64,000 bases of DNA from a virus. The stretch's first letter is position 1; the number at the start of each line of letters is the position of its first letter. Under the pieces are notes generated by a model. That model ran no database searches and was not told the DNA's origin. It saw nothing but the letters and a program-made list of their open reading frames with translations. Below are positions 11,034 to 33,415 of this stretch, one piece after another. A program made the translations under genes and the position numbers. The DNA lies in the IMG/VR virus record IMGVR_UViG_3300025860_000003, positions 32,001-96,000 of that record; one strand, written 5' to 3'.

Positions 11034-11626
11034 TATTCGTCTCCTGCAACGATGTCAATGAGCTTTTGCATGCGCATAACATCCATAACAATATCATGGC
11101 GTGGATCGTGACCCACGAATTTGTCGGCTAACTCTTCAGGTATAAACGAATTCTTCAGAGGCGAGCCATATGATAAACCCTCAATGAATGATCGAGTATC
11201 TCGAATCAACCACCAGTCAAACGGATCTTTCTCGCCAGAGTGCGCAAGTAATGTCCGTAGAAAGATAGGATCAAATGAGTTGCCTCGTGTCCAGACCTTT
11301 CTTACTGGCGCTACATCAAGTTTATCACAGAACCAATTATACAACTCTTTGACTGATTTGTCAAGCGGCGATGGAGCTAGTAACGCTTGCGCTTCTTTGG
11401 GCTGATTCTTCCACCAAGCCAAAGTGCTCTTCTGGATGTTGCGTCCAAGTTTAACCTGCTCAGCAACATCAAACTTAATCATATGAGTGTCAGCAAGTAG
11501 CTCTTCATAGGTGTATGGATTCTTCAGGAATCTCTTATCGTCATACTGGAGAACAGCCAAGCTAACCGCAACACCATTCACCATATCTTGACTTAATGTT
11601 TCAAAGTCATATATCACACTATTCAT
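11033..11626 (-). CDS. dexA: DexA-like DEDD 3'-5' exonuclease
   Basis: YDFETL, WTRGNSFDP, IRDTRS and HDPRHD motifs. Confidence 0.8.
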   Translation of the reverse strand: MNSVIYDFETLSQDMVNGVAVSLAVLQYDDKRFLKNPYTYEELLADTHMIKFDVAEQVKLGRNIQKSTLAWWKNQPKEAQALLAPSPLDKSVKELYNWFCDKLDVAPVRKVWTRGNSFDPIFLRTLLAHSGEKDPFDWWLIRDTRSFIEGLSYGSPLKNSFIPEELADKFVGHDPRHDIVMDVMRMQKLIDIVAGDE

Positions 11627-12332
11627 ATTTCCATCCTATAGGGGTTTTGTTGCAGTGGTCGTTATAATCTTCTTCCTGATGCCATGATGATGCCCAATGG
11701 TGGACTGCATATGCTTCAGGGCATGTTTCAGCAAAGTCTTCATTCCTTCTATCCATCTCATCCCAGAGATATGGATATAACAGTTCACGCGGAACAGCCT
11801 TTTCATATCCTGCAGTGTCGCTGAAAAATACTGTACCATATTTCTTTTGCGCAGGGTACACAAACCCTTCATTCATCAATGTCAGCTGGGCTTGGGTTTC
11901 TTTGATGTGCTGGTGTCGGGCATAACAACCCTCAACAAGGTCGTGCATCTCGACACCACCCTTTGCTGAGGCTATGAACGCATTACACATATATTCATCG
12001 CTCTCAGCCCCAGCAACAAAACTCTTTCCACTCATAAGATCATCAATAGGCTTCAGACATTCATAATCAATATCAGTATAAACTCCACCATATCTAAACA
12101 GTATCTCATATCTCAACAAATCAGACACTTCAGCCAAAGATGTCGCATATTCAGCTATATATGAGTTCTTGAACAAAAACCCATCAAGCCTAGCTACACG
12201 TAGAGCATTCTCATCCCAGACAATAAATTCCCATTCTGGATTATGCTTCTTCCATGTTGATTGCCAATACTTTTGCTCTGCGCTTAATCTTCCACCACCC
12301 AGCCATATTTGGTGTATTATTTTAGGTATCAT
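11619..12332 (-). CDS. GT32-family (OCH1/DXD) glycosyltransferase
   Basis: IPKIIHQIW, SDLLRYEILFRYGGVYTDID and HHWASSW motifs. Confidence 0.88.
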   Translation of the reverse strand: MIPKIIHQIWLGGGRLSAEQKYWQSTWKKHNPEWEFIVWDENALRVARLDGFLFKNSYIAEYATSLAEVSDLLRYEILFRYGGVYTDIDYECLKPIDDLMSGKSFVAGAESDEYMCNAFIASAKGGVEMHDLVEGCYARHQHIKETQAQLTLMNEGFVYPAQKKYGTVFFSDTAGYEKAVPRELLYPYLWDEMDRRNEDFAETCPEAYAVHHWASSWHQEEDYNDHCNKTPIGWKYE

Positions 12333-14956: not shown

Positions 14957-14985
14957 ATTATACTACAAGATAGGTGGTATGTCAA
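14957..14985 (-). promoter_or_regulatory. sigma70-type promoter TTGACA-N17-TATAAT
   Basis: Perfect consensus upstream of gp44. Confidence 0.8.
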
Positions 14986-15746
14986 GCGGAAAATGGTACA
15001 ACCGCACCTCTACCGCCTGACTGATAGTAGAAGTTGTATGTGTCTGGCAGGTCTAATTTGAGGTCTTCGGGGATGTTGATGTCCCTTGATACCATGCCTC
15101 TCTCAAACTCATAGTTAAATGTCACTAGATCTAGATGATGAGCTTCAGTGATTATATCAACCACATCATCAGTGTAGTAACTCCGATAGTCATACTCCCT
15201 CATCGATGAGTTCCAATATGCGAGTTTGGAGAAACTGGGCAGACCAATTGCATCCGCGACTATTTTCCAGTCTTGTTTTATAGACTCATAACGACCAATG
15301 AAGTTCATGAGACTATTACCATCGGGATCAATGAAGTTGCCGATCTGCGGTCTGATGCAAAAGCCTCTGTTCCATTGGTAGTCGTAGTCGGATGATTCAA
15401 CGTCCAGCACTACAGCTTCATCGTATCTCCACTTAACCCAGTCGGCGAAAGACACATCCCACTTACATTCAGCGATACACTGAGAAGCGTATATACTCAC
15501 CTCACGATCAAACGGATTTCTGACAAAGCCAAACTTATAGCGTGTGTCGAATGTTTCCTTTGGCAATACGCGAGAGGCTTCATATGCTATTCCGTGTTGA
15601 GGAACAACACCGCTATGATCACAGAGAGCGTCATATGTAGACGAACCACCCTCTGTATCACAGACAGTCATGTCAGTCGGTCTAAGCCAATCAAGCATAC
15701 TGGTTCCAGCAGCTTTTGGGTTATGGACAAATATCCATTTAGTCAC
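14982..15746 (-). CDS. sulfotransferase family 2 protein
   Basis: PAPS-binding motifs FVHNPKAAGTS and FVRNPFDR.VS; FIGRYE; YRSYY. Confidence 0.85.
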   Translation of the reverse strand: MTKWIFVHNPKAAGTSMLDWLRPTDMTVCDTEGGSSTYDALCDHSGVVPQHGIAYEASRVLPKETFDTRYKFGFVRNPFDREVSIYASQCIAECKWDVSFADWVKWRYDEAVVLDVESSDYDYQWNRGFCIRPQIGNFIDPDGNSLMNFIGRYESIKQDWKIVADAIGLPSFSKLAYWNSSMREYDYRSYYTDDVVDIITEAHHLDLVTFNYEFERGMVSRDINIPEDLKLDLPDTYNFYYQSGGRGAVVPFSA

Positions 15747-16301: not shown

Positions 16302-16862
16302 TTATATCACACCATAAATATCTTCAGACTCAACCCATGTCATATAACCTTGCTTATGCAAGATGTTTGTGATAAGGCTATCATCTATGTGCGCATGCTC
16401 AATCTTAACAAATGTGGGTTTAACTTTCCAGCTGTACACGCCGAGGATATTTAACTCATGCCCCTCAACGTCGATCTTCATGAAGTCAATATGACCAATC
16501 TCGTTTTCTATGAGATAAGTGTCCAGTCTACAACATGGCACTTCAATCCTATCCAACAGAAGATGGGCGTTAGCTGGGCGACTGAACATGCGCCCACCTA
16601 AATGATCCGCATCGTCCACAACACCAATCCCACGCGCCCAGTCATCGGTTTGAATGCTTTGGTTGAACGCAACTGTACCATTCTTATTCGATACAGCCAT
16701 GTTATCAACTTTGACATCATATTGGGCTGTCTTGTTAGCCATAATTTCAGCATAACGTGGATCAGCCTCAATCATATATCCAGACCAACCTGCTTCAGCG
16801 AGAGGAAGACACGTGTCAAAATCACACGTGCCTATCTCTAGGAAGACTTTCCCATTACCCAT
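16302..16862 (-). CDS. FkbM-family methyltransferase
   Basis: FLEIG, IEADP and IDFMKIDVEGHE motifs; probable start MGNGK at 16862. Confidence 0.85.
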   Translation of the reverse strand: MGNGKVFLEIGTCDFDTCLPLAEAGWSGYMIEADPRYAEIMANKTAQYDVKVDNMAVSNKNGTVAFNQSIQTDDWARGIGVVDDADHLGGRMFSRPANAHLLLDRIEVPCCRLDTYLIENEIGHIDFMKIDVEGHELNILGVYSWKVKPTFVKIEHAHIDDSLITNILHKQGYMTWVESEDIYGVI

Positions 16863-17523
16863 TGTATTTGCTTCCAGCCTCAGTAGCAACCCAATACTCA
16901 ACAACAGAGCCGAGGAAGTGGGAGATGCCTTTAGACGATACACTAACCTTATAATCATCAGACATAAACTTCAGATTCTCGGTCTTGAAGATGAACTCAA
17001 ACTCAGCTTCAGTGTTACCAACCGACAGACCAAACTCATTAGAAGTTGGATTCTTTGTATCAGTAGCAACCAAAGAGACAGTGCCGTCCGAACCACGAAC
17101 AACAACTTCAGGCAATGACAGTTGATTCGCAGCGTTGACAACTTTCTTATAGTTGGCAGCGGTCATATCAAATTGAACTTCAGGATCAGGCAGCTCAAGA
17201 TTCTTCTCGGGTGGAGAAGTTATCATTGACGGATCAGTGTATGTGTAGCGACATTGACTACTTGGTTGTGACGCTTCACTGACGGTTAGTGACGATGAGC
17301 CGAAGTCAAAGACAGCATCCTCAAACAAACTAGTCAACCCAAGAAACTGATTCATCTCATAGATGGCAAAGTCTTGTGGGAATGATTCACTTACAACAGC
17401 AGACGCAAGGATGTTCTTCTGGGGTGATACAGTTCGTAACACGTTGCCAGTCTTAAATGATAACGATGGATTTATCGTTGAGAAGTTCTTTAAAACTTCA
17501 AAGGTGCTTTCACTAATTTTCAT
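16855..17523 (-). CDS. gp45: DNA polymerase sliding clamp
   Basis: MKISESTFEVLKNFSTINPS...FAIYEMNQFL...YWVATE. Confidence 0.96.
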   Translation of the reverse strand: MKISESTFEVLKNFSTINPSLSFKTGNVLRTVSPQKNILASAVVSESFPQDFAIYEMNQFLGLTSLFEDAVFDFGSSSLTVSEASQPSSQCRYTYTDPSMITSPPEKNLELPDPEVQFDMTAANYKKVVNAANQLSLPEVVVRGSDGTVSLVATDTKNPTSNEFGLSVGNTEAEFEFIFKTENLKFMSDDYKVSVSSKGISHFLGSVVEYWVATEAGSKYNG

Positions 17524-18954: not shown

Positions 18955-20124
18955 CTAGAATGGAGCGTCTTGAGTAGTGTCAGCATTGGCAAGAGGATCA
19001 CCCACATCACTGTCACCGCCCAAGTTTACATCAGCGTCCAGCTTGGCGTACAAGTCACGAAACGAGGCTTTGGTGTCCTCATCAAAGCGATTAATACACA
19101 TGTCAATAGACTTCATACGGTCATCAAATATCTTGAACGCTTTGGCGATGTGGACAAGGCGACGAGTAGAAATTATCTCATCAATACCACCATCATAGAA
19201 AGTCTTGCGGATGATGTCAGCCCAGTCAACCAGTTTAGAAACAAACTCATCATCTTGGACAGCAAGGTCTTCAAACACAGCCGAGAGTATTTTCTTCTCA
19301 ACAGCAACACTAGGATATTCTTGCTCAAAGGTGACAGGGAAACGCTCAAGGAACGCTTCATTCAAGACGTTAGTCCCGATAAATCGACCATCATCAGATC
19401 CTTTACCTTTGGTGTTACCAGTAGCAACAACAGTGAAGCCAGCAGCAGGAGAGACAAACTCACCAGTCTTCTTGATGAAGTAGCCTTTACCCTCAAGGAT
19501 AGACTGGAGACACATGATCTTGGCAGGGTTGCCCAAGTCAATCTCATCCAGAAGCAATACCGCACCACGCTCCATAGCTTTGATGACTGGACCTTTGAAG
19601 AAGCGAGTCTCACCATCAACAAGACGGAAGCCACCAATCAAGTCATCTTCATCTGTCTCAACAGTAAAGTTCACACGGATTGATTCACGCTTCAATTGAG
19701 CACAAGCCTGATCAACCGAAAACGTCTTACCATTACCAGACATACCAGTAATGAATACGGGATAGAACATGTTAGACTTGATAACATTCTTCAGAGTGCT
19801 GAAATTACCAAACGGAACAAACAGCGGATCCTTGACGGGCACTAAGTTTTGAGTGAAGCCTGTAGAAACGACATTCAAGTCAGCGACTAAGGCGTTTGGC
19901 TGTAGCGCAGGCGCAGGAGCTGGAGCCGAAGCTGGAGCAGGTGCAGGGACGGTATTCGGCGCTATATCAGGGAGATTGTACAACCCACGATCAACGCGCA
20001 AGGATTTGTGGAAGTATGAACTCGGAACTTTCACCCCAAGCTCACGAGCTACTCGCTTCGTCTCAAGGCTAGGAACAGGCGCATCGGGATATAGGCTCTT
20101 CAAAGTATCAAATAAATTGGTCAT
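18955..20124 (-). CDS. cobS: CobS-like MoxR-type AAA+ ATPase
   Basis: GMSGNGKT, LLLDEID, TGNTKGKGSDDGRFIGTNVLNEAFLERF and ISTRRL motifs; probable start MTNLF. Confidence 0.92.
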   Translation of the reverse strand: MTNLFDTLKSLYPDAPVPSLETKRVARELGVKVPSSYFHKSLRVDRGLYNLPDIAPNTVPAPAPASAPAPAPALQPNALVADLNVVSTGFTQNLVPVKDPLFVPFGNFSTLKNVIKSNMFYPVFITGMSGNGKTFSVDQACAQLKRESIRVNFTVETDEDDLIGGFRLVDGETRFFKGPVIKAMERGAVLLLDEIDLGNPAKIMCLQSILEGKGYFIKKTGEFVSPAAGFTVVATGNTKGKGSDDGRFIGTNVLNEAFLERFPVTFEQEYPSVAVEKKILSAVFEDLAVQDDEFVSKLVDWADIIRKTFYDGGIDEIISTRRLVHIAKAFKIFDDRMKSIDMCINRFDEDTKASFRDLYAKLDADVNLGGDSDVGDPLANADTTQDAPF

Positions 20125-20157
20125 ATAGGTCTCTCTCATTCATTCATTTAAGTAGCC

Positions 20158-23344: not shown

Positions 23345-23899
23345 TCAACTGGCTATTGATTTCTCAATAAAGTCAATAATTTGTTGTGTATCTTCAGGGA
23401 CATTGTGAGCAAAGGTATGGACACATCCAGCTTCACCCATCAATATTTTCTCCCCAAACATATCTTCAATGTTAGCAACCTTAGTCACCCGTCCATTGAT
23501 AAACGTCTCAGACTGATCAGAACCTCTGTCCGCATAACGCTGTTGGCGTACTGCGTCATCTGTTTTCAGAACTATGATTGATAGATCATGTCCCGCTCTC
23601 TTCACAGCCTCGAAAAATTTAGAAGAAGTAAGCCGATCACCCTCGAACACAACGACAGGTGATGGCTCATTCCCCATATACTCTACTGCCATTGGCTGTA
23701 CTGCCATTGACAACTTATCAGTTCCCGCAAAGACTTCACCGTCTTCATACTTACCAAACAAGCGGATGTCGCCTGAAACATAACCATCAAGCAACTTAAC
23801 AGGAGTGTCTTTAGTCCATTCCCGCTTTGCCATCCACTGCCGCATGAGCGTTGTTTTGCCAGTTCCTGGAATACCAATGATACCAATCACTTTACTCAC
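23345..23899 (-). CDS. P-loop kinase of DNA hypermodification type (candidate 5-hydroxymethyl-pyrimidine DNA kinase)
   Basis: GIPGTGKTT, FAGTDKLS, FEGDRL and RGSDQ motifs; adjacent to TET/JBP and aGPT-Pplase genes. Confidence 0.75.
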   Translation of the reverse strand: MSKVIGIIGIPGTGKTTLMRQWMAKREWTKDTPVKLLDGYVSGDIRLFGKYEDGEVFAGTDKLSMAVQPMAVEYMGNEPSPVVVFEGDRLTSSKFFEAVKRAGHDLSIIVLKTDDAVRQQRYADRGSDQSETFINGRVTKVANIEDMFGEKILMGEAGCVHTFAHNVPEDTQQIIDFIEKSIAS

Positions 23900-25281
23900 G
23901 AGAAGAAACCCTCTAATGATGTTTGCGATTCAGCTTCTGGATGATATTGATTCAGCATATCAACTCCACCTTTATCTTTAAGGTAATCAAACCACTCATC
24001 TTCAGCCCACATACTTGGCGAAACGCCATTCCAAAAACTTTTCCATAGCTTATGATCTTTGTTTAATCTACGATCATCAACATACTGCTTTCGGAGAGAT
24101 TCATATTCCCACGAGCCAACATCAAGCATTTTCTCACGGAAGTAGCATACAAGCGAGATACGCTCCATGTCTTCAATAGAAGTTCCAGCAGGTGGCTTCA
24201 GCTCAGTGTTGCCGTGTATGCCGCCATGGTTGTTGATCAATAACAGATCTCCAGGACGGATGTTAATGCCAACACGAAACTCTGGAAGAACAAGATAACC
24301 ACCCTCCCAATTCTTTGCTTTAGCAACAACAGTTAGATTAGAGAAACCTTCATTCAAGTCGCCAGCATCTCGGTGACATGCGGTGCGGAAGTTCTTATTC
24401 ACAGTAACTGTAGTGAACGGAGTATCTTCGCCCGCAACACGGAAGCGTGGATCTAGTTTAGCGGCAGCTTCATTCTGAATACCATATCGAATAGGCAAGT
24501 GTTCTTTAAACTTAGCGGACAACTGACGCATGAAAGGATAGCACTTCTCATATACGCTGTAGTTGTTCTCAGTGTACGCAGTCGCTCGACCATATGGGAT
24601 GCGAGGATAGCGATCAAAGAAACCAGCAATACCTGACAACACCATGTTAGCATATGTTGTCTCAGAGATATAGTTCTTCTGTGTTGCCTTTGCGTCTTTC
24701 TGAGAATCTTCGGCAGACATACCTTTCCACTCTTCAACCTTATCACTGAAGAACGATTCATAGTTGTAGCCATTGTCGGTAATCTTAGAACGGATCCAGA
24801 CAATACCACGTGACTCACTCTCAGCAGCCACAGCGTGTCTAGCTTTGATTCTTTCTACTGGATCAGTGTCGTCCTCAAACAAAGTAACTTCACGTTCAGC
24901 AAAGTGCTTCATAATGTCTAACTGTTCTTCAGTAACCCAATCACGACCGCCTTGCTTTGCTCCTTTTGGACCAGCAGCTAGACCACGATTCTGTGTGGGT
25001 AATGCCGCACCAAGTAATCCCTCATATGCGCCATGTTGTTGTTCTTCAGTGAATACGTTTTTACGAAACTTGAAGATAATGTTGTCTTCGTTATTCTCTC
25101 CACCAAAGCCAGCAGGAGCATAGAAGTCAGTGTTCTCCTCACAGATAAAGTCCCAGTCAGTATCTTCCATATACTTGCCGAGTTTGTCTTCGCAATTATC
25201 CCAAAATTTAGCGGTAACAGTTCTGACTCCAGTTCTGTTATCTACACTCACATCATATCTTTCGTTTATCACGCCAATCAT
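23896..25281 (-). CDS. TET/JBP-family Fe(II)/2-oxoglutarate dioxygenase
   Basis: FTTVTVNKNFRTACHRDAGD (HXD), GGYLVLPE, HGNT and RISLVCYFRE motifs. Confidence 0.88.
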   Translation of the reverse strand: MIGVINERYDVSVDNRTGVRTVTAKFWDNCEDKLGKYMEDTDWDFICEENTDFYAPAGFGGENNEDNIIFKFRKNVFTEEQQHGAYEGLLGAALPTQNRGLAAGPKGAKQGGRDWVTEEQLDIMKHFAEREVTLFEDDTDPVERIKARHAVAAESESRGIVWIRSKITDNGYNYESFFSDKVEEWKGMSAEDSQKDAKATQKNYISETTYANMVLSGIAGFFDRYPRIPYGRATAYTENNYSVYEKCYPFMRQLSAKFKEHLPIRYGIQNEAAAKLDPRFRVAGEDTPFTTVTVNKNFRTACHRDAGDLNEGFSNLTVVAKAKNWEGGYLVLPEFRVGINIRPGDLLLINNHGGIHGNTELKPPAGTSIEDMERISLVCYFREKMLDVGSWEYESLRKQYVDDRRLNKDHKLWKSFWNGVSPSMWAEDEWFDYLKDKGGVDMLNQYHPEAESQTSLEGFFS

Positions 25282-26288
25282 ATCATAAATCTCTCTAGAC
25301 CGATATCGGTCATCTCATTTGTAAATGTATTCATATGGTCAATTTTCCCAGTATCTAGGAAGAGTTCCATTTTACCCTTATTCACTGAATTTGTCAAGTA
25401 TTCATTTCGTAGTGTTTCTTTCCTAGCATCCCACATAGGAGTCCAGTCTATACCAACCCACTCATCGCACTCGACTTTCTTTATTTCCTCAGCCTGTCTA
25501 TCTATATAATATCCGAGATAGCGTCCTCTGCTCTTGCGGAATAACTTCTTGAATGAGCACAGCGCAGTTTCCATAGCAAAGAAGTCAGCCTTGTGAGCCG
25601 AGTCAGGAAACGCAGTCTTGACCTCAGCCAACATATCCGCACCCTCATCTTCCATCCACTGTATTTGATCAGCAGTCAACTTAGTGCTCACCCAGTCATC
25701 TTTACCCAGAGCATAACATAAACCGTTGCGGTGGGATTTAGATCCTGAGTAGTCATGTAACCATAGGTTTGGAACATCAACATTCAAGTCAGCACACTGC
25801 TTCAGAGTCTGTATATAGAACCAAGAAGTGTAACGACCAAACTTATGTAGAGAGTTGACAGCTTCCCACACATTAGCAAAGTTCTCATATTTATCACCAT
25901 TACATAACTCGGCAAACGCTTGAGCTTGAGTTCTATCACCAACCCATGCTTTGTATGATTCAAACTGATCCGCTAGATGACCTTTGTTCCACTTAGTGTC
26001 AGTCTGATAACGTAGTCTTGAATAGTTTTCGTTGTTCCATTCTCTCAGACGATCTACACCAACCAGCTCCATATCAGGAAACTCATTCCAGATAAGATAT
26101 GCTGTAGGGAAGTTGTATGTCGTACCATATAACCAACACAACCAAAGGCGCTGCTCTATATTATACTCAAACCGATCAAAGAAATAGTTTGTGATGTATA
26201 GCGCAGAGTCACAATCTTCTATCTCAAGACCCCACCCAAACCAATTGATGAATGCTTGCTTACGATGTTCACTTAGTCGATAATCCAT
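25278..26288 (-). CDS. alpha-glutamyl/putrescinyl thymine pyrophosphorylase-like amino-acid:DNA transferase (aGPT-Pplase2 type)
   Basis: FGRYTSWFY, SHRNGLC, ETALCSFKK and RYLGYYIDR motifs; operon context. Confidence 0.8.
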   Translation of the reverse strand: MDYRLSEHRKQAFINWFGWGLEIEDCDSALYITNYFFDRFEYNIEQRLWLCWLYGTTYNFPTAYLIWNEFPDMELVGVDRLREWNNENYSRLRYQTDTKWNKGHLADQFESYKAWVGDRTQAQAFAELCNGDKYENFANVWEAVNSLHKFGRYTSWFYIQTLKQCADLNVDVPNLWLHDYSGSKSHRNGLCYALGKDDWVSTKLTADQIQWMEDEGADMLAEVKTAFPDSAHKADFFAMETALCSFKKLFRKSRGRYLGYYIDRQAEEIKKVECDEWVGIDWTPMWDARKETLRNEYLTNSVNKGKMELFLDTGKIDHMNTFTNEMTDIGLERFMI

Positions 26289-26941
26289 TAAAAGAAACCC
26301 TCTAGAGTATTTGGCTCATCACCTATCAATTTATCACGCATCCAATATTCGCCTACAGCAGCAATTGCTTCTTCTACAGTAGCGGTCTTTTTCTTACCAA
26401 AGCCATGTGATTCAAGCGACTCATTTGTAAGCTGCTTCACAACCTTAGCGTCAGTGGGTGTGGCTAGATGAGGCATCTTAATTGCGGTAGCTCTGAACAT
26501 CCGTTGTTCTCTCGCAGAGGCAAATAGTGGCTGGTCAGATCGTAACGAGCCTGTCGGATCAACTGCCCAGAATACTAGACCATTTCTCTTATGCCAAGTA
26601 ACTGATGATGGAGTACATGACAACTTCAATCGAGTCATACCATTATCGCAAGCATCAGCCATAACCTGTTCCCAGATAATTGTAGCGTAACCTTTACCCT
26701 CTTGCCCTTGGCGAGTTACGATCTCATATAGATTGATGTATCGTGATCTCTGACTATATGTAGCGAATACAAAGGCAACCAACTCACCATCCACTTCCAA
26801 AGCAAACGGCGGATTCTTATCATAGTTCTTGAATCGAAACCAAAGGCTGTGTGAAGAGTTGAGAAACTTAGTGTTTCTACCCTCTGGGGAGTCCTCTATG
26901 ACTGCCTCCACCATCTCTTGTGTACAACGTACTAACTGCAT
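26288..26941 (-). CDS. GNAT-family acetyltransferase
   Basis: Acetyl-CoA-binding motif QGQEGKGYA; W....G..FW. Confidence 0.75.
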   Translation of the reverse strand: MQLVRCTQEMVEAVIEDSPEGRNTKFLNSSHSLWFRFKNYDKNPPFALEVDGELVAFVFATYSQRSRYINLYEIVTRQGQEGKGYATIIWEQVMADACDNGMTRLKLSCTPSSVTWHKRNGLVFWAVDPTGSLRSDQPLFASAREQRMFRATAIKMPHLATPTDAKVVKQLTNESLESHGFGKKKTATVEEAIAAVGEYWMRDKLIGDEPNTLEGFF

Positions 26942-27624
26942 TGTAGATCCCTCACTAAAGCGCCGCCACGTATTTTTTTTCCGACACTTAGCTCACCATT
27001 GTAAATATAAGACTGGTACATACCGCATTGTGTTGTATCGCCGCAGCCGCTTCGATTCAGGATATCTTTGGTTGACGCAAACACTACACCATTGCTTCTG
27101 GCACTATACCATAATGGTCTTGCTTCGTTTCTAAACGCAGATAATGTTTTGTCTTTGGTGATACTACAAACTGCCATACTAGCAGGAGAGAAGTCATTGA
27201 GTGGATGTCTATTGGCTTCAAAGGACTTCAATATGAGCTCACTATCATTTGCTGTCTCGGTGTCATACTTCCATTGGCTCATATCTTCTTGCGAGATAAC
27301 GCCGTTATGGACTATGCTTTGATTGCCGTTAGAGAATGGTTGGTTGTAACGCAAGTCAGAAGTGGAGTAGCGGATATGACCAATAAGGTATATTCCACCA
27401 TCCTCATTGACCATACTGCTGATGGGGTATCTCTCTAGAAATTGGTCGCAAGGAATCCCTTCCTTAATGGTGTGAATTTCGCCATTCTTGATATAAGAGA
27501 CTCCAGTCGCATGCTTGCCTCTTATCATTGACTGTTGGAAGACATTCTCGACTAGACGGATATTCTCCAAAGAGTCGCGACTCACTGTCGACCTTTCCAA
27601 CCATACACCTATCACACCACACAT
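26932..27624 (-). CDS. class II (Ntn) glutamine amidotransferase domain protein
   Basis: N-terminal MCGVIG; RG..ATG, GHIRYST, NQP, HNGVI, DSE and RPL motifs. Confidence 0.88.
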   Translation of the reverse strand: MCGVIGVWLERSTVSRDSLENIRLVENVFQQSMIRGKHATGVSYIKNGEIHTIKEGIPCDQFLERYPISSMVNEDGGIYLIGHIRYSTSDLRYNQPFSNGNQSIVHNGVISQEDMSQWKYDTETANDSELILKSFEANRHPLNDFSPASMAVCSITKDKTLSAFRNEARPLWYSARSNGVVFASTKDILNRSGCGDTTQCGMYQSYIYNGELSVGKKIRGGALVRDLQCS

Positions 27625-27653
27625 AATATACCCTGAATTAGTTGATTTCAGTT

Positions 27654-27682
27654 ATTATACACTACTTCACCAGATTAATCAA
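27654..27682 (-). promoter_or_regulatory. sigma70-type promoter TTGATT-N17-TATAAT for the DNA-modification operon
   Basis: Consensus spacing upstream of 27624. Confidence 0.6.
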
Positions 27683-28195
27683 GTATTTTTTTCGCAATTT
27701 GTCTAGCCTTTTCTTTTCTTTCCTAGCTCTGTCTACTTGGACAGATGAAGCTCTGCTGGTGAAGTTTATACCAATAAGGTAATCGTTCGCTTGCTGAAAA
27801 TACTTCGCCATGAACTCATTAAGTTTGTGTGTGTCAACGTTACCGTCAGCAGCGGCATATCTTGCTCTAATATACGATGGACGCTTCACCTTAATGAACA
27901 GCCCATTATATGTAACACATCCCTCTTCTTCATTTATTGTCTCTTCCGATTCCCACACGATAGTTGGGTTGAATACGGTGATGATATTATTAGGATCATC
28001 AGGATTCCCGACAACAAAAACCGAAAGGTTGATTCCACACTGATTAGCCGACAGCGCATAGGCACGATTAGCTATCATCGTTTCTTTAAGGTTCTCTGCC
28101 AACTCAACTGGATCCATCTGTGGATTGTCGAAGTCAAACTTCACTGTTGCTCTGCGCAAACCAATATGGTCTAACGACATCAAATTATATATCAT
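27662..28195 (-). CDS. def: peptide deformylase-like protein with degenerate active site
   Basis: ALSANQCG, FNPTI, EEGCVT and VKRP motifs; QHEXDH replaced by QQANDY. Confidence 0.8.
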   Translation of the reverse strand: MIYNLMSLDHIGLRRATVKFDFDNPQMDPVELAENLKETMIANRAYALSANQCGINLSVFVVGNPDDPNNIITVFNPTIVWESEETINEEEGCVTYNGLFIKVKRPSYIRARYAAADGNVDTHKLNEFMAKYFQQANDYLIGINFTSRASSVQVDRARKEKKRLDKLRKKYLINLVK

Positions 28196-29907
28196 GGTGC
28201 TATCCTGCTAAACGATTTAACTTTCTCAAAACGGATCTGGCTGCGGAATTTATCAGTCAGAACGTCACCCTTGGTATGTGTAATGATAAAGACATTAGTG
28301 TCAGACATATCATTCAATAACTTTGTCAACTCATCAGTACCTGTAATGTCAAGAGAGTTATCAAACACTTCATCGAGTATCAGTAGGTTTGTGTTTGTTG
28401 AATTCTTCAGCTTTGCAATGGCTCGCCATGTAAGTAGTAAGGCGATATCAATACGAGTCTTTTCTCCCTCAGAGAAACTAGCATAAGAAAACTCATCACG
28501 ATGGCGACTTTTAATAATTTCATTGAATTCCTCATCAAGTTCAAAGTTCACAAAGAAGTCTAATGCTGACAAGTATTTGTTCACCAGCTTATTCATAATA
28601 GGGACATACTGCTTGATGATCTTTGACTTAATGCCGCCATCTTTAAGCATAGTAGATGCGATCTCAAACAATGCCTTATCTTCTGACAATGCGCTGGCTT
28701 GTTTACTATACACCCCCAAGTCTGTCTTGTAGCTATCCAGTTTAATGGTCGCATCGCTGTCTACAGTAGATTGCTGCTCGGCAGTTTGAATCTTCTGCTC
28801 AACACCTTTGATCTGATCACCATACAAACTAATTTGCGTTTGACAATCACGTATCTTATTCTGAGCATCTTGTATCTCATACTGTATAGTATTCATCTGA
28901 CTCAGCTCTTCATGCAGCTCATCATACTCAACCTTCAATTGGCTTATAGCGTCTTGCGTTGTATGCAGTATCTCAGCGGTCTTGTCGATCTTCTGCTTCT
29001 TAACTTGCATGTCAATGATCTGTTCGCAGGTCGGGCAATTATCGTTGTTGTCATAGAACTTGATGCGCTTCTCAGCTTTCGACGACTTATCATGTAGCTT
29101 ATCTAAGAGCGTTGACATCTTATTTGACTTAGCTTCAGACTTTCCTTTATGAGAGATTGAGTCAATCAGAGTATCAGCTGTCATAGTAAGCGCAATACAA
29201 AGGTTGTCAGCATCCTGCTTTGACTCAACATATCCCTGAGCCTCATCCTTTAGCGAGACAATCAGCTTATTGGCGTCCGAAGTAACCTGTCGAAGATATT
29301 CCTTTTGTACATCTATCTTCTCTTGAGTTATATCAAGTTGATAATTGACTTCAGCGATATTCCGTTTGTTCTCAGAAACTCTTTCTTTCAACAAGAGATT
29401 CATAGTGGAGAATATCTGGATATCAAGCAAGTCCTCAATAACCTCTCTACGATCACGTGTAGATAACTGCATGAACGGAGTGAAGGATGCGTTGCCTAGA
29501 ATAACGATCTGAGTGAACGATTTATAATTCAGCTTGAGGATAGTGTTCTCTAGAATAAGCTGATAGTCTCTGGCATTTCCAGGTTGGTCAACCAACTTAC
29601 CATTTTTGTATATCTCGAAGAATGCAGGCTTCATACCTCTACGAACCTTATACTCAACGGTTCCTACATTGAACTCAATCTCAACCACACATCCCTTTTC
29701 GTTGATACTATTACAGAGCAACGCCTTATTGATCTTGCGGAAAGGTTTGTTGAATAGACCAAAGACGAGAGCGTCTAATATGGTAGATTTACCCGCACCA
29801 TTTTCGCCTGTAATGACCGTGCTCGGAGACCGATTAAGCTGGATCTCTGTAGCCACATTACCTGTGCTCAGGAAATTCTTGTAGGATAACTTCTTGAATA
29901 GTATCAT
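28192..29907 (-). CDS. gp46: recombination endonuclease ATPase subunit (Rad50/SbcC-like)
   Basis: GENGAGKST, CPTC zinc hook, FSEGEK and LILDEVFD motifs. Confidence 0.97.
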   Translation of the reverse strand: MILFKKLSYKNFLSTGNVATEIQLNRSPSTVITGENGAGKSTILDALVFGLFNKPFRKINKALLCNSINEKGCVVEIEFNVGTVEYKVRRGMKPAFFEIYKNGKLVDQPGNARDYQLILENTILKLNYKSFTQIVILGNASFTPFMQLSTRDRREVIEDLLDIQIFSTMNLLLKERVSENKRNIAEVNYQLDITQEKIDVQKEYLRQVTSDANKLIVSLKDEAQGYVESKQDADNLCIALTMTADTLIDSISHKGKSEAKSNKMSTLLDKLHDKSSKAEKRIKFYDNNDNCPTCEQIIDMQVKKQKIDKTAEILHTTQDAISQLKVEYDELHEELSQMNTIQYEIQDAQNKIRDCQTQISLYGDQIKGVEQKIQTAEQQSTVDSDATIKLDSYKTDLGVYSKQASALSEDKALFEIASTMLKDGGIKSKIIKQYVPIMNKLVNKYLSALDFFVNFELDEEFNEIIKSRHRDEFSYASFSEGEKTRIDIALLLTWRAIAKLKNSTNTNLLILDEVFDNSLDITGTDELTKLLNDMSDTNVFIITHTKGDVLTDKFRSQIRFEKVKSFSRIAP

Positions 29908-29917
29908 AATTTACAGT

Positions 29918-30976
29918 TTACTCTATTGTGAGGGATTCATTATATAACGAACGGAGCAAAGAGTCAAGCCTTTCTTTGGGTACGTTGTCAGATAAGCCTC
30001 CGACATACTTGGAGAGTATCGTCATAGTGTCCTCAGCCTCATTCACTATATCCTCATCGTCCTCTAGATTCAGGTTCATATGATCATCTACGATCTGGAT
30101 ATTGAGCGGATCAGACTTATACAGCTTGTCAATGAATAGATCAAACCAGTATGGATTGTCACACTTCTGTTTAATCACCTTGACATAGGTGTTCTTGAAC
30201 CCGTCAAAGTCTACATCAAGAAGATCTTCCATCGTCTTGCCGTCTTCATTATAGAACACTTTATGGAACATAGAGTATGGATTGCGTACAAACTCAAGCT
30301 CTCGCTTATCAGTATCGTAGATATGGAAGCCTTTAGTATCGCCATAATCAGCCCATGTAAGCTCATAGGGACAGCCGAGATACTCGATATTGTTTGTAGT
30401 TGACTTATGGTGGAAGTGACCAGAACATACAAGCTCAAACTTAGAGAAGTCCGCAATCTTCATACCATGCTCGTTCATGTTACCGCGATCCATCAGACAG
30501 CCAGCAATCTCTAGGTGACCAAACAACACTTGAGCTGGGGTGTCTTTCATAGACTGAATCGCAGCGGCATAGTTTTGATTGTTTATCCAAGGCATGATAT
30601 GAATGTCATGACCATCAAACTTCAGGTCAGTAGGCTCTGAGTAATAGTTCACATTAGACTTATCAAACAGCTCCCGCATGGAGTTCACATCATTAGTGTT
30701 TTTATATGGAACGTCATGATTGCCGACTATAACGTGTAACTCAATACCCTCTTCAGTACACTTATCAATGAACATCTCCTTCATTCTACGGAGAGTTACA
30801 TAGTTGATATACTTGCGTCGATCGACAATATCACCCAGATGGATGATTGTATCAATACCCTGCTCCTTCAGGTGAGGAAAGAAGTGTTTGCTGTAAAACT
30901 TCTCAAAGTAGTCTAAGAAGTTTACGCTGTCATTACGAATACCGAAGTGTGTGTCGGTTACTAATCCAATTTTCAT
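29918..30976 (-). CDS. gp47: recombination endonuclease nuclease subunit (Mre11/SbcD-like)
   Basis: DTHFG, HLGD, GNHD, GHLE and SGHFH motifs. Confidence 0.97.
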   Translation of the reverse strand: MKIGLVTDTHFGIRNDSVNFLDYFEKFYSKHFFPHLKEQGIDTIIHLGDIVDRRKYINYVTLRRMKEMFIDKCTEEGIELHVIVGNHDVPYKNTNDVNSMRELFDKSNVNYYSEPTDLKFDGHDIHIMPWINNQNYAAAIQSMKDTPAQVLFGHLEIAGCLMDRGNMNEHGMKIADFSKFELVCSGHFHHKSTTNNIEYLGCPYELTWADYGDTKGFHIYDTDKRELEFVRNPYSMFHKVFYNEDGKTMEDLLDVDFDGFKNTYVKVIKQKCDNPYWFDLFIDKLYKSDPLNIQIVDDHMNLNLEDDEDIVNEAEDTMTILSKYVGGLSDNVPKERLDSLLRSLYNESLTIE

Positions 30977-31536
30977 TGCTGAAGTTTGCCCTCTTCCGTT
31001 TCTTTCTTCTTCTTGATCTTTCTTCGCTTATTTTCTTCGAAGTCCTCAACAAACCTCGCCATGTAGTCTTCAGTCCACTCGCCATACTTAACGTTGTCAT
31101 TGTAGTCATTACCAGAATCATGACCTTGAGTGTCCGCAGTATCACCCAACACATTAGTGTGCTCAGAGAACTTAATCTTCACATACAGGTTCTTTTTCTC
31201 TTTCTGTATTCTACGGAGGAACGCATAGTAGATGATCTGTGTGAAATACGCAAATGGGTTGTTCGACTTCTCAGGGTTGAAGTTGTCAATATATTGTAGG
31301 CAGTTCTCGATACCATCACAGACCATCTCATCTCGAAAGGTGTAGTTGATGAAGTTTGGTTTGTATGATAGGTGAGTCGCTATCTTCATAATGCAGTCAG
31401 CAATATAGTTCGAGACGATAGGTCTTGGTGCACCACTTTCCTTTGCGTCTATGACGCTCTGACGGAACTCAGTCATAGCCCCCAAGAACTTCTTGTTATC
31501 AACATAGTATGGCTTCTTCTTTGCTGCTTTTGACAT
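30973..31536 (-). CDS. gp55: late transcription sigma factor
   Basis: YVDNKKF...NFINYT.RDEM..DGIENC..Y..NF.PEKS.NPFAYFTQI. Confidence 0.96.
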   Translation of the reverse strand: MSKAAKKKPYYVDNKKFLGAMTEFRQSVIDAKESGAPRPIVSNYIADCIMKIATHLSYKPNFINYTFRDEMVCDGIENCLQYIDNFNPEKSNNPFAYFTQIIYYAFLRRIQKEKKNLYVKIKFSEHTNVLGDTADTQGHDSGNDYNDNVKYGEWTEDYMARFVEDFEENKRRKIKKKKETEEGKLQQ

Positions 31537-31545
31537 AATATAATC

Positions 31546-31959
31546 CTAATGCATCGTTGTATTAGCTGTTGATTCTGATTGAGCCACGACTTTAGCATAC
31601 ACTTCCTGTATCTGTCTATCGGTCATCTGTTCTTCATCATCAGAAGAGAAAAATGAAGCAGAGCTATCACTTTCCATTGAATCATTTATTGTTTCTAGAC
31701 ATCTATTATAATACGTTATCATGTCCTCGTCAACCTCTGATTTCAACATAATTGCGCTTTGCTTTATGTGAAACAGATTCACTTCTTTAGTCAACGGAAC
31801 CCATATTGTACAGATGCAAATAGGCGAAGCATCCTTTCTGGTGTGTACAGTTATCTGTACTGGGTCGATGATATGAAGATGCGTTTCGTCTTCAAATGTA
31901 ACTTCAGTAAGAAGCGTCTCTCCATTGATTAGCTTAACAATCTCAATGCTCATTCTCAA
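31546..31959 (-). CDS. conserved hypothetical protein (Sm-like, between uvsW and gp55)
   Basis: IVKLINGE...P...W.P pattern; usual position in T4-like phages. Confidence 0.7.
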   Translation of the reverse strand: MRMSIEIVKLINGETLLTEVTFEDETHLHIIDPVQITVHTRKDASPICICTIWVPLTKEVNLFHIKQSAIMLKSEVDEDMITYYNRCLETINDSMESDSSASFFSSDDEEQMTDRQIQEVYAKVVAQSESTANTTMH

Positions 31960-33415
31960 TCCCTATATTATATATTTTATATTCAAAATTCTCTTCATTA
32001 TACATCTTAACTCTCACAGCAAAATGTTTCAGTGTATGGTTATTCCATGACTTCCAACTCAGGTCATCGGATACATCATAGAGAGTGGCGACCTCTTTAT
32101 CATCGCCCTTTCTCAAGCCCCTGCCGATCGACTGTAAATTTCTTACACGTGACTTACTAGGACTGGCAAAGATAACATTATGTAAATTTCTAATGTTGAT
32201 GCCAGTAGAGAAAGTCCCATAAGACGCAATAATAACGGCGTTGTTTTCTTTTTCGGTGATAGCACGTACACTCTCTCTGGTATCGGCATCTACTCCTCCA
32301 TATATAAAAAATACTTGTCTACCCTCTTCAGCAGCTTCGCTTATCATATCATATAAGATACGACCATGCTTATCAACATACTGGAAGAGTAATAGTGTAT
32401 TACCTTTTCGTGTTAAAGTCAAGTTCTTTAGGAACGCATTACGCTTGGCGTGGCTTACTATGAAGTCCATTTCAGCTTGATAAGTTGAGTTCTTCACAAC
32501 CTTTCGAGTAGCATCATCATACTTTAAGACGAGACATTTGATACGGAAGTCTGATAGAGTCTTGTTGTCAATCAGCTCTTTAGTGGTGATCACCCGCATA
32601 ACTGGACCAAACATTCCCTCCAACACCAGCTTATTGGTTACAGTTCCGTCTAGTGTTCCAGTGAAGCCAAACCGATACTTACAATCAACCATCTTCTCCA
32701 TAATCTTAGTCAGAGACGTTGCTTTAAATAGGTGGGCTTCATCGCCGATGATTATATCAAATTGATCGAAGTATGATTTTGGTTGCTTGTAGATACTCTG
32801 CCAAGTACTGATAATTATTTTCGCTTCATCGACAGATTTAGCTTGACCTCCAGTAACAAGATGGGTATAATAGAACTGTCGCTCTTCGGAATAGTCATTA
32901 AAGTCTCCATTAAGCTGTGCTACCAATGATGTAGTCGGTACAATAACGAGTGCTTTCTTACAGGTCTTGCGTAGATAATACTTTAGTAGACAGTAGATGA
33001 TAAACGACTTACCTGAAGCAGTAGGTGATAATATCAAAGCTCTGTGATTGCGAACAGCGTGAGCAACAGCTCTTAACTGATAGTCCCTTGGCTTCCACTT
33101 ACCCTCTGTAAGAAACTTCTCCAAACCATTCAGCGGAATGTCAATTGTATCGTCGATACCATCATGAACAATAACTTCATACTCTCTATCAGCAGCAAAC
33201 TTCTTTATCTTAGTGAGCAACCCTTTATAGATTTGCATTGTATTGACGTTGAATAGTCTTATCTTACCGTCCCACATCTTAGCTCTTACTGATGGGATGA
33301 ACGAAGCTCCTGGAACCTCAAACTCAAAATAGCTTGATAGCTCCATAGCAATTCCACGATCGCATTCGACCTTTATGTGGACTTCATTCTTATTGTATAT
33401 GTGTATCTGTTCCAT
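31943..33415 (-). CDS. uvsW: UvsW SF2 helicase
   Basis: PRDYQ, SPTASGKS, DEAH, GFTGT and QSIGRGLR motifs. Confidence 0.96.
   Translation of the reverse strand: MEQIHIYNKNEVHIKVECDRGIAMELSSYFEFEVPGASFIPSVRAKMWDGKIRLFNVNTMQIYKGLLTKIKKFAADREYEVIVHDGIDDTIDIPLNGLEKFLTEGKWKPRDYQLRAVAHAVRNHRALILSPTASGKSFIIYCLLKYYLRKTCKKALVIVPTTSLVAQLNGDFNDYSEERQFYYTHLVTGGQAKSVDEAKIIISTWQSIYKQPKSYFDQFDIIIGDEAHLFKATSLTKIMEKMVDCKYRFGFTGTLDGTVTNKLVLEGMFGPVMRVITTKELIDNKTLSDFRIKCLVLKYDDATRKVVKNSTYQAEMDFIVSHAKRNAFLKNLTLTRKGNTLLLFQYVDKHGRILYDMISEAAEEGRQVFFIYGGVDADTRESVRAITEKENNAVIIASYGTFSTGINIRNLHNVIFASPSKSRVRNLQSIGRGLRKGDDKEVATLYDVSDDLSWKSWNNHTLKHFAVRVKMYNEENFEYKIYNIGIENEH

Follow-up and report, generated by a model that had tools for sequence, protein, structure and literature searches.

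We analyzed a 64,000-nucleotide stretch of viral DNA (positions 32,001 to 96,000 of IMG/VR record IMGVR_UViG_3300025860_000003; hereafter, the window), whose minus strand carries five overlapping open reading frames (ORFs) at 23345-27624 in the ORF listing. They encode a stand-alone glutamine amidotransferase (GATase), a GNAT N-acyltransferase, an amino-acid:DNA transferase (AADT), a TET/JBP-family dioxygenase (TET), and a P-loop kinase. This operon very probably hypermodifies thymine through 5-hydroxymethyluracil (5hmU) and 5-phosphomethyl-U. The best explanation of the whole locus is post-replicative thymine hypermodification with ammonia from GATase, acylation by GNAT, and delivery of the enzymes by the sliding clamp; taken together, we regard this scheme as evenly poised between right and wrong. 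The system would be a variant of a known post-replicative thymidine hypermodification, and two features probably set it apart: a PurF-like glutaminase that acts in trans to feed AADT, and clamp-binding tails carried by the enzymes that act on DNA.

In the proposed pathway, TET would hydroxylate thymine in phage DNA to 5hmU, judging from its family, its fold, and the gene content of the genome. The kinase, by its family, would phosphorylate 5hmU to 5-phosphomethyl-U. AADT Cys244 would then attack C6, thereby expelling the phosphate and allowing an amine to add to the exocyclic methylene, as suggested by the family, the Glu/Cys pair, and a predicted complex. The amine is most likely ammonia, derived from glutamine by GATase docked in trans through its Cys2 face and C-terminal DLQ tail, and the product would be 5-aminomethyl-U. 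GNAT would finally N-acylate this amine, probably to 5-acetylaminomethyl-U or a close acyl variant, as its fold and the precedent of phage PaMx11 suggest; 5-acetylaminomethyl-U is the likeliest predicted product. For delivery, gp45 may hold TET, AADT, and GNAT on DNA by their tails, thereby replacing the ParB activator of related dioxygenases, a proposal drawn from sequence. GATase, with a different tail, would dock on AADT instead of riding gp45.

Operon content and the source of the hydroxymethyl group

All five proteins exceeded the curated Pfam cut-offs in profile searches (Table 1), which bore out the identities given in the preliminary description of this DNA. The five overlapping ORFs were likewise confirmed, with overlaps of 10, 1, 4, and 4 nt between consecutive ORFs from GATase to kinase. 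That description had named hidden Markov model searches as a check on the transferase and kinase families, and these placed the two ORFs in ADDT and Ploopntkinase3, respectively. The kinase has the Walker A motif GIPGTGKT at residues 9-16, and its homologs are present in phage Cr30 and in Mycobacterium phage ParB-dioxygenase-AADT-kinase clusters.

Next, we examined the TET enzyme. H303, D305, H356, and R374 were invariant in 46/46 aligned sequences, which were hand-picked from 67 distinct rows to thin near-duplicates. We take the first three to be the HxD...H iron triad and R374 to be the 2-oxoglutarate-binding Arg of TET. The AlphaFold2 (AF2) model had a mean predicted local distance difference test (pLDDT) score of 80.8, and its best Foldseek matches were CcTet, NgTET1, and TET2 (E-values of 3e-9 to 1e-7; template modeling scores of 0.3-0.5), showing the TET-type double-stranded beta-helix fold. 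TET/JBP homologs also occur in the cultured phages DLP6 (27179-28525), Cr30 (59353-60681), and S-CBWM1, with identities to the window TET of 43-49% (DLP6 and Cr30) and 27% (S-CBWM1). They are annotated as 'SNF2 DNA repair protein', a label that looks like a mis-annotation.

The source record is a 133-kb contig rated 74% complete, and it carries a ThyX gene. Profiles of the ThyA family (PF00303, which includes dUMP hydroxymethylase), C5 DNA methyltransferase (PF00145), and ParB_N (PF02195) found no match in this contig, whereas positive controls gave matches in the same searches. Because ThyX is present without these three families, and because of the TET residues and fold, post-replicative thymine oxidation is the reading we prefer, with the proviso that a quarter of the genome is missing. 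The preliminary description had proposed that TET/JBP makes the hydroxymethyl handle after replication and had suggested checking for thymidylate synthase, dUMP hydroxymethylase, and a C5 methyltransferase; the outcome fits its proposal. A pre-replicative 5hmU route, a 5-methylcytosine (5mC) route, and a ParB-dependent dioxygenase were each considered and rejected on the respective profile results.

The same description had placed the genes behind one sigma70-type promoter. A candidate with 10/12 consensus matches was indeed found in the 37-nt gap that separates the stop codon of the peptide deformylase gene from the start of GATase. Sites of this kind were not enriched in the region, as 11 were observed compared to 14.0 ± 3.2 in shuffles. 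Since they are no commoner than in shuffled sequence, the candidate is not evidence for an operon by itself, and we rejected it as such.

Table 1. Positions of the operon genes, their C-terminal tails, and related features in the window (the minus sign denotes the minus strand)
Feature	Position	Strand	Description
Stand-alone class II (N-terminal nucleophile, Ntn) glutamine amidotransferase (GATase), PurF-like glutaminase domain	26932-27624	-	230 aa; Pfam GATase_6, 1.7e-9, 38.2 bits (cut-off 27)
GATase DLQ tail, residues 226-230	26935-26949	-	C-terminal; D[LMI]Q plus 0-2 residues ends 48/52 distinct homologs
GNAT N-acyltransferase	26288-26941	-	217 aa; Pfam Acetyltransf_1, 2.8e-7, 31.3 bits (cut-off 20.7)
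GNAT tail NTLEGFF	26291-26311	-	C-terminal
Amino-acid:DNA transferase (AADT), aGPT-Pplase2 family	25278-26288	-	336 aa; Pfam ADDT (PF18724), 8.7e-24, 85.0 bits (cut-off 26.2); phrog_3271, 1.9e-63
AADT tail IGLERFMI	25281-25304	-	C-terminal
TET/JBP-family 5-methylpyrimidine dioxygenase, predicted thymine dioxygenase	23896-25281	-	461 aa; Pfam Tet_JBP (PF12851), 3.1e-24, 85.5 bits (cut-off 34.9); phrog_24024, 1.1e-152
TET tail TSLEGFFS	23899-23922	-	C-terminal
P-loop kinase, 5-hmU DNA kinase family	23345-23899	-	184 aa, GTG start; Pfam Ploopntkinase3 (PF18751), 3.2e-17, 63.1 bits (cut-off 27)
Sigma70-like promoter candidate	27654-27682	-	TTGATT-17-TATAAT
gp45-type sliding clamp, proposed docking platform	16855-17523	-	PF09116, 7.8e-20; phrog_223, 1.9e-71
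gp55 late sigma homolog	30973-31536	-	phrog_234, 3.2e-59
DXD-type glycosyltransferase	11619-12332	-	Downstream of the operon
Sulfotransferase-family protein	14982-15746	-	Downstream of the operon
CbbQ/CobS-like AAA ATPase	18955-20139	-	Downstream of the operon

Predicted docking of the amidotransferase on AADT, and the proposed role of GNAT

The GATase protein begins with MCG, and C2, R35, G36, H83, R85, Y86, S87, T88, N107, G108, D127, D226, and Q228 were invariant in 36 homologs; the alignments of GATase, GNAT, and AADT comprised the window and the 35 further loci in which all three genes are present. When the family profile was searched against the PDB, 8/8 matches were PurF (amidophosphoribosyltransferase) chains, with a best E-value of 1.7e-6, and the alignment spanned the Cys, RG, HxRYST, HNG, and D motifs. 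The single GATase sequence did not suffice for this, as phmmer found no match to it in the PDB. Thus, the window GATase resembles PurF in its class II Ntn glutaminase domain and catalytic residues. In PurF (glutamine phosphoribosyl pyrophosphate amidotransferase), ammonia displaces a phosphoryl leaving group on carbon. Unlike PurF, whose glutaminase is fused to an acceptor domain, the window GATase has no fused acceptor (synthase) domain; the glutaminase domain fills the separate 230-aa protein, whose predicted docking partner in trans has an unrelated fold.

In AADT, E240 and C244 were invariant in 36/36 clade members. They were also kept in 8/8 sequences of a wider alignment including enzymes of Ackermannviridae, Vibrio phage, Cygsa01, and Mycobacterium phage, GATase-less ones among them. 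Mutation of this Glu/Cys pair abolished the activity of the AADTs M6 gp51 and ViI gp247 (PMC8989533).

Structure prediction was then employed on the AADT:GATase pair. The predicted complex gave ipSAE interface scores of 0.83, 0.83, and 0.82, compared to 0.00 for the best of three controls; contacts agreed in at least 92% between runs, and partner pLDDT was at least 88. The ipSAE mark was reached by 58/80 solved complexes and 2/110 mismatched pairs, and these counts are rough because our own alignments were used for prediction. An AADT profile found no real match in the PDB, so the score does not reflect recall of a like complex. The interface involved GATase residues 1, 33-38, 86, 88, 167-170, 184-187, and 227-229 and AADT residues 38-45, 68-72, and 278-284, such that the active-site face of the glutaminase (residues 1, 33-38, 86, and 88) and the DLQ tail (227-229) faced AADT. 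The AADT patches 38-45 and 278-284 were invariant in the GATase-linked clade and divergent in four GATase-less AADTs.

GATase is therefore predicted to dock in trans on AADT via its active-site face and DLQ tail. We lean modestly toward ammonia from GATase as the nucleophile of AADT, because GATase is PurF-like and because its active-site face and DLQ tail are predicted to contact clade-specific patches of AADT. Direct supply of ammonia by GATase, which the preliminary description had raised, has thus gained support from the PurF matches and the modeled complex. A literature search joining glutamine amidotransferase, thymidine hypermodification, and ammonia gave no paper with all three among the matches listed.

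GNAT comprises a core (residues ~1-140), a helical extension, and a clamp-type tail. Its AF2 model had a mean pLDDT of 93.6, which dropped to 48 in the last block, and the nearest solved folds by Foldseek were amine N-acetyltransferases, e.g., SpeG, RimI, and EctA. No sequence relative was found by tblastn in 50,697 phage records, PaMx11 included, so that a homologous relationship with PaMx11 gp48 was not demonstrated. By analogy, the simplest role for GNAT would be acylation of the 5-aminomethyl group, as PaMx11 gp48 does. That the acyl group is acetyl is plausible, although slightly less probable than the contrary.

Clamp-type tails on the modification enzymes

TET, AADT, and GNAT share a C-terminal tail, [ST]LExFF (more broadly, [ST/G]LExF[FM]), with the phage's own DNA polymerase, whose C-terminal piece (C1:29827-30930, matched by phrog_262 to its last residues) ends in SSLESFFG. 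The pattern occurred in 6/178 non-overlapping ORFs of the contig, including this piece and the three enzymes, compared to 1.0 ± 0.95 matches in shuffled tails; the probability of at least three tailed proteins among the five operon genes was p = 2e-4. Among distinct homologs, it was kept in 63/67 for TET, 55/62 for AADT, 33/43 for GNAT, 0/52 for GATase, and 1/57 for the kinase, with identical duplicates dropped and minimum ORF lengths of 400, 300, 150, 190, and 150 aa, respectively. Five of the seven AADT homologs that missed the pattern end in LE[AE]FYGxN. In the surveyed loci, the tail was also carried by 62/1356 other ORFs of at least 80 aa, among them full-length polymerases, enzymes of the TAGT type, variants of GNAT, and several small proteins.

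The gp43 polymerases of T4 and RB69 end in ASLDFLFG and ASLFDMFDF in GenBank, and these tails bind gp45 (PMC2988020). Like those of T4 and RB69 gp43, gp55, and gp33, the window tails combine a short hydrophobic and acidic motif at the extreme C-terminus with a flexible linker. In contrast to the known tails, they sit on base-modifying enzymes (TET, AADT, GNAT, and TAGT), and their binding to gp45 is putative. The TET model had low pLDDT over its last 11 residues, of which 456-460 formed a short helix; the tails of TET and GNAT thus formed low-confidence ends behind folded domains, as expected for a linear motif. The gp45-type clamp itself was identified in the window (Table 1). A PF02916 search gave no match anywhere, and it was uninformative because the controls also gave none.

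The tails of modification enzymes co-varied with the polymerase tail by lineage. In C48C1, the polymerase ends in TLEDFFG and TET in SLEEFFV; in DLP6, the polymerase ends in TLDSFFA, TET in TLGDFFV, and a TAGT-like protein in DLSSFFN. The Cr30 polymerase ends in DLSSLFD and a 308-aa neighbor in DLSKLF, and in Cygsa01 the polymerase tail is SVMDFFS and that of AADT is DLMGFFQ. Because their tail is the same as that of the phage DNA polymerase, it is probably the gp45 sliding clamp that keeps TET, AADT, and GNAT on DNA. A literature search on clamp tethering of hypermodification enzymes gave no report of such tails on TET or AADT among the matches listed. More tentatively, gp45 may serve T4-like phages as a loading platform, and possibly an activator, for a toolbelt of TET, AADT, GNAT, and TAGT in the stead of ParB, which is itself a DNA clamp, combined with a split class II amidotransferase that would channel ammonia in trans into DNA-bound AADT and yield 5-aminomethyl-uracil in one step; we hold this combined proposal to be somewhat doubtful. 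If true, the gp45 toolbelt could explain the inactivity of ParB-less Clade C1 enzymes expressed alone in E. coli.

Several other proteins carry similar ends. A 208-aa ORF (G000:C1:832-1458, minus strand) without a Pfam or PHROG match ends in SNLEDFFGE and is, by this sequence, a candidate clamp client. A family of ~100-117-aa proteins, found beside TET or AADT in some loci, is also tailed (TLEMFLA, SLEEFMV), as seen in L043:7678-8007, L068:4824-5174, L076:5652-6005, and L091:9047-9355. In Cygsa01 (28636-32770), two hypothetical proteins adjoining AADT end in VLDLF and VFDLF, resembling its polymerase tail. Since AADT and both neighbors in Cygsa01 resemble the polymerase in this way, clamp-type tails on modification enzymes may reach beyond the lineage of the window. 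The family-B DNA polymerase gene (gp43) itself is split just upstream of the window start (G000:C1:29827-32650) into a 483-aa N-terminal ORF, a 90-aa ORF, and a 367-aa C-terminal ORF; the 90-aa ORF has no family match in Pfam or PHROGs. Aeromonas phage 31 has an annotated gp43-B.

Alternative readings, related systems, and distribution

A number of points weigh against the scheme proposed here. At 74% completeness, the contig could lack a part of the genome that encodes a hydroxymethylase, C5-methyltransferase, or ParB. For the ammonia step, AADT:GATase was the sole pair modeled and its score is a model confidence; in the account of Lee et al. 2021 (PMC8989533), all characterized AADTs use an amino acid or putrescine, not ammonia. 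The acetylation analogy rests on fold class, since GNAT has no detectable phage relative, and the ammonia and acetyl chemistry of the operon is what we infer. For the clamp, the kinase, which also acts on DNA, lacks the tail in all but one of its homologs, and so do 10/43 GNAT homologs. The gp55 homolog ends in KKKETEEGKLQQ, with no hydrophobic clamp-binding tail, whereas T4 gp55 has one (PMC2988020). Clamp tethering of modification enzymes has no confirmed precedent, because a 2025 preprint that used C-terminally tagged enzymes did not reproduce the claimed interaction of T4 alpha-glucosyltransferase with gp45.

These points leave room for other readings, of which a different nucleophile is the most serious. 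AADT could transfer a free amino acid (e.g., glycine, serine, or glutamate), as in M6, ViI, and PaMx11, after which GATase would amidate the appended carboxylate and GNAT would acylate the amine, giving an undescribed amino-acid-amide base. The substrates of the characterized enzymes and the unchanged catalytic Glu/Cys pair agree with this route, as do larger cluster variants with 290-aa and ~440-aa proteins between GATase and AADT, which could be tailoring enzymes. However, the core five-gene cluster encodes no ATP-dependent amidoligase or synthetase domain by which a carboxylate could be activated, and the predicted complex puts the active-site face of the glutaminase, not a distal surface, on AADT through patches specific to the GATase-linked clade. 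GATase is, moreover, closest to PurF, with its displacement of a phosphoryl group by ammonia. We therefore consider amino-acid transfer unlikely, though not remote, and retain ammonia as the favored nucleophile.

The function of the tail and the substrate of TET can also be read otherwise. The tail might not be a clamp ligand but could serve enzyme-enzyme or other phage-protein assembly, or act as a stability signal, and its absence from the kinase and GATase of the same pathway, as well as from the gp55 homolog, would be in keeping with this. It is improbable given that this tail is found at the end of the polymerase both in this phage and on related contigs, aligns with the gp45-binding gp43 tails of T4 and RB69 (PMC2988020), co-varies with the polymerase tail in Cr30, DLP6, C48C1, and Cygsa01, and also ends the TAGT glycosyltransferases adjoining TET in sister loci. 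Clamp binding thus remains our preferred explanation. As for the substrate, the dioxygenase could oxidize 5mC, so that the pathway would decorate 5-hydroxymethylcytosine; the clade A and B phage TETs are 5mC dioxygenases (PMC8256090), and the incompleteness of the contig bears on this point as well. Nevertheless, no C5 methyltransferase was found in the 133 kb, the kinase and AADT families have been characterized on 5hmU (PMC8989533), and a thymine substrate has been proposed in print for TET_JBP genes that stand beside such enzymes without a neighboring methyltransferase (PMC8989533; PMC13229309). Oxidation of 5mC is thus very improbable, and thymine is kept as the substrate.

Much of the gene set has been described before. 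In the report of Lee et al. 2021 (PMC8989533), 5-hmU DNA kinase makes 5-phosphomethyl-dU (5-PmdU), to which clade-2 aGPT-Pplases (AADTs) then transfer glycine or serine via an essential Cys and Glu. In PaMx11, a flavin adenine dinucleotide (FAD) enzyme turns glycinyl-T into 5-aminomethyl-dU, which is then acetylated. The same report describes metavirome contigs in which TET_JBP stands beside these genes where a dUMP hydroxymethylase would otherwise be; the contigs also hold 'amidoligase and glutaminotransferase' genes, to which it assigns no known function. O'Toole et al. 2026 (PMC13229309) found Clade C1 dioxygenases 'consistently linked' with GATases, P-loop kinases, and AADTs. Many of these dioxygenases need a ParB activator, which may stabilize the dioxygenase on DNA by analogy with a ParB-family clamp, and some ParB-less C1 members showed no activity (O'Toole et al. 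2026, PMC13229309; cf. Burke 2021). The association of TET_JBP, kinase, AADT, and amidotransferase is therefore already known from these two papers (PMC8989533; PMC13229309) and is less new than the preliminary description supposed. The docking and ammonia role proposed for GATase and the clamp-type tails may be new; neither was found among the matches listed in text searches of the literature.

We then compared the window with the nearest of these systems. The PaMx11 pathway to 5-acetylaminomethyl-dU consists of gp46 (AADT), gp47 (FAD-dependent lyase), gp48 (acetyltransferase), and gp49 (5-hmU DNA kinase) (PMC8989533). Like PaMx11, the window combines a kinase, a clade-2 AADT, and a GNAT-class acetyltransferase acting on DNA, and the end product is likely the same. 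Unlike in PaMx11, 5hmU would arise after replication via TET/JBP and not from dUMP hydroxymethylase, the window GNAT lacks a sequence match in any phage record, and Pfam searches of the five ORFs and their flanks found no FAD oxidoreductase domain; a stand-alone GATase stands in its place. The ParB-dependent Clade C1 5mYOX clusters similarly link a TET/JBP thymine dioxygenase to a P-loop kinase, AADT, and GATases (PMC13229309). The window differs from them in that ParB_N gave no match in the contig sequence and a polymerase-type clamp tail is found on the dioxygenase instead. In Mycobacterium phage Hydro, an example of these clusters, the order is ParB-oxidoreductase-AADT-kinase with no GATase, whereas the window cluster has one, and the window dioxygenase shares only ~28% identity with the Hydro enzyme over 104 residues.

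Thymidine hypermodifications shield phage DNA against restriction as well as CRISPR nucleases, and biotechnology can draw DNA-modifying enzymes from them. The locus bears on two published questions, namely the role of amidotransferases in such clusters (PMC8989533) and the inactivity of ParB-less Clade C1 dioxygenases (PMC13229309). A replication-clamp tail would be a plausible substitute for ParB, which predicts that such dioxygenases need gp45 and a free C-terminus. The published work also leaves the question of why phages modify after rather than before replication (PMC13229309). If the ammonia route is true, GATase and AADT would provide a two-enzyme shortcut to 5-aminomethyl-dU in DNA, a useful primary-amine handle.

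A neighborhood survey, which the preliminary description had recommended, showed a conserved operon order. Two IMG/VR scans gave 116 loci, of which 115 held at least one of the five genes, and these were collapsed to 71 groups by identical proteins. The window order (GATase-GNAT-AADT-TET-kinase) was found in 18 groups and an order with TET at the front (TET-GATase-GNAT-AADT-kinase) in 15; GATase and AADT were separated by ~3 kb in 10, and TET occurred without the other four genes in 14. GATase was present in 50/56 AADT-containing groups, and the contigs of the remaining six end at most 2006 nt upstream of AADT. From these counts, this clade of AADTs has GATase as a core partner, and the cluster is common in IMG/VR. 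On contigs that include the flanks, the cluster follows gp46 and precedes a 743-aa 'peptidase' gene.

Two kinds of variants were observed. The ~3-kb insert of the 10 spaced groups encodes a 290-aa protein with an N-terminal YEIEWGDIDR motif, a divergent GNAT, and a 430-495-aa protein; such enlarged clusters include L021:4215-7042, L066, L101, L104, L025, L053, L077, and L094. Searches of the 290-aa and 430-495-aa proteins in Pfam and PHROGs gave no match except a weak GIY-YIG in one (0.0021). These insert proteins may be further tailoring enzymes. In the TET-only loci that were inspected, a ~270-aa protein follows TET, and in L011, the one scanned, it is a TAGT glycosyltransferase, and sugar-nucleotide enzymes are encoded close by. 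Sister loci that occupy the genomic position of the window cluster (L010-L014, L016, L017, L020, L042, and L043; e.g., L011:6842-10926) pair TET and a TAGT glycosyltransferase with a UDP-glucose dehydrogenase-like protein, an epimerase, and a small P-loop kinase, and the clamp-type tail is on both TET and TAGT. This set looks like a base-J-like module. It shares with the window the position between gp46 and the 'peptidase' gene and a tailed TET; in the window, the tailoring module GATase-GNAT-AADT-kinase replaces the glycosyltransferase.

Finally, we considered the genomic setting. The operon had no megablast match among the 50,697 phage records, and no tRNA genes were found within the window. 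The neighboring genes encode Hsp20, peptide deformylase, gp46/gp47, gp55, UvsW, gp23, the gp44 clamp loader, and the gp45 clamp, and the contig polymerase is 55-59% identical to cyanophage gp43. On this flanking gene set and polymerase identity, the carrier virus is assigned to the T4-like, cyanophage-related phages. Three further genes lie downstream of the operon and are listed at the foot of Table 1.

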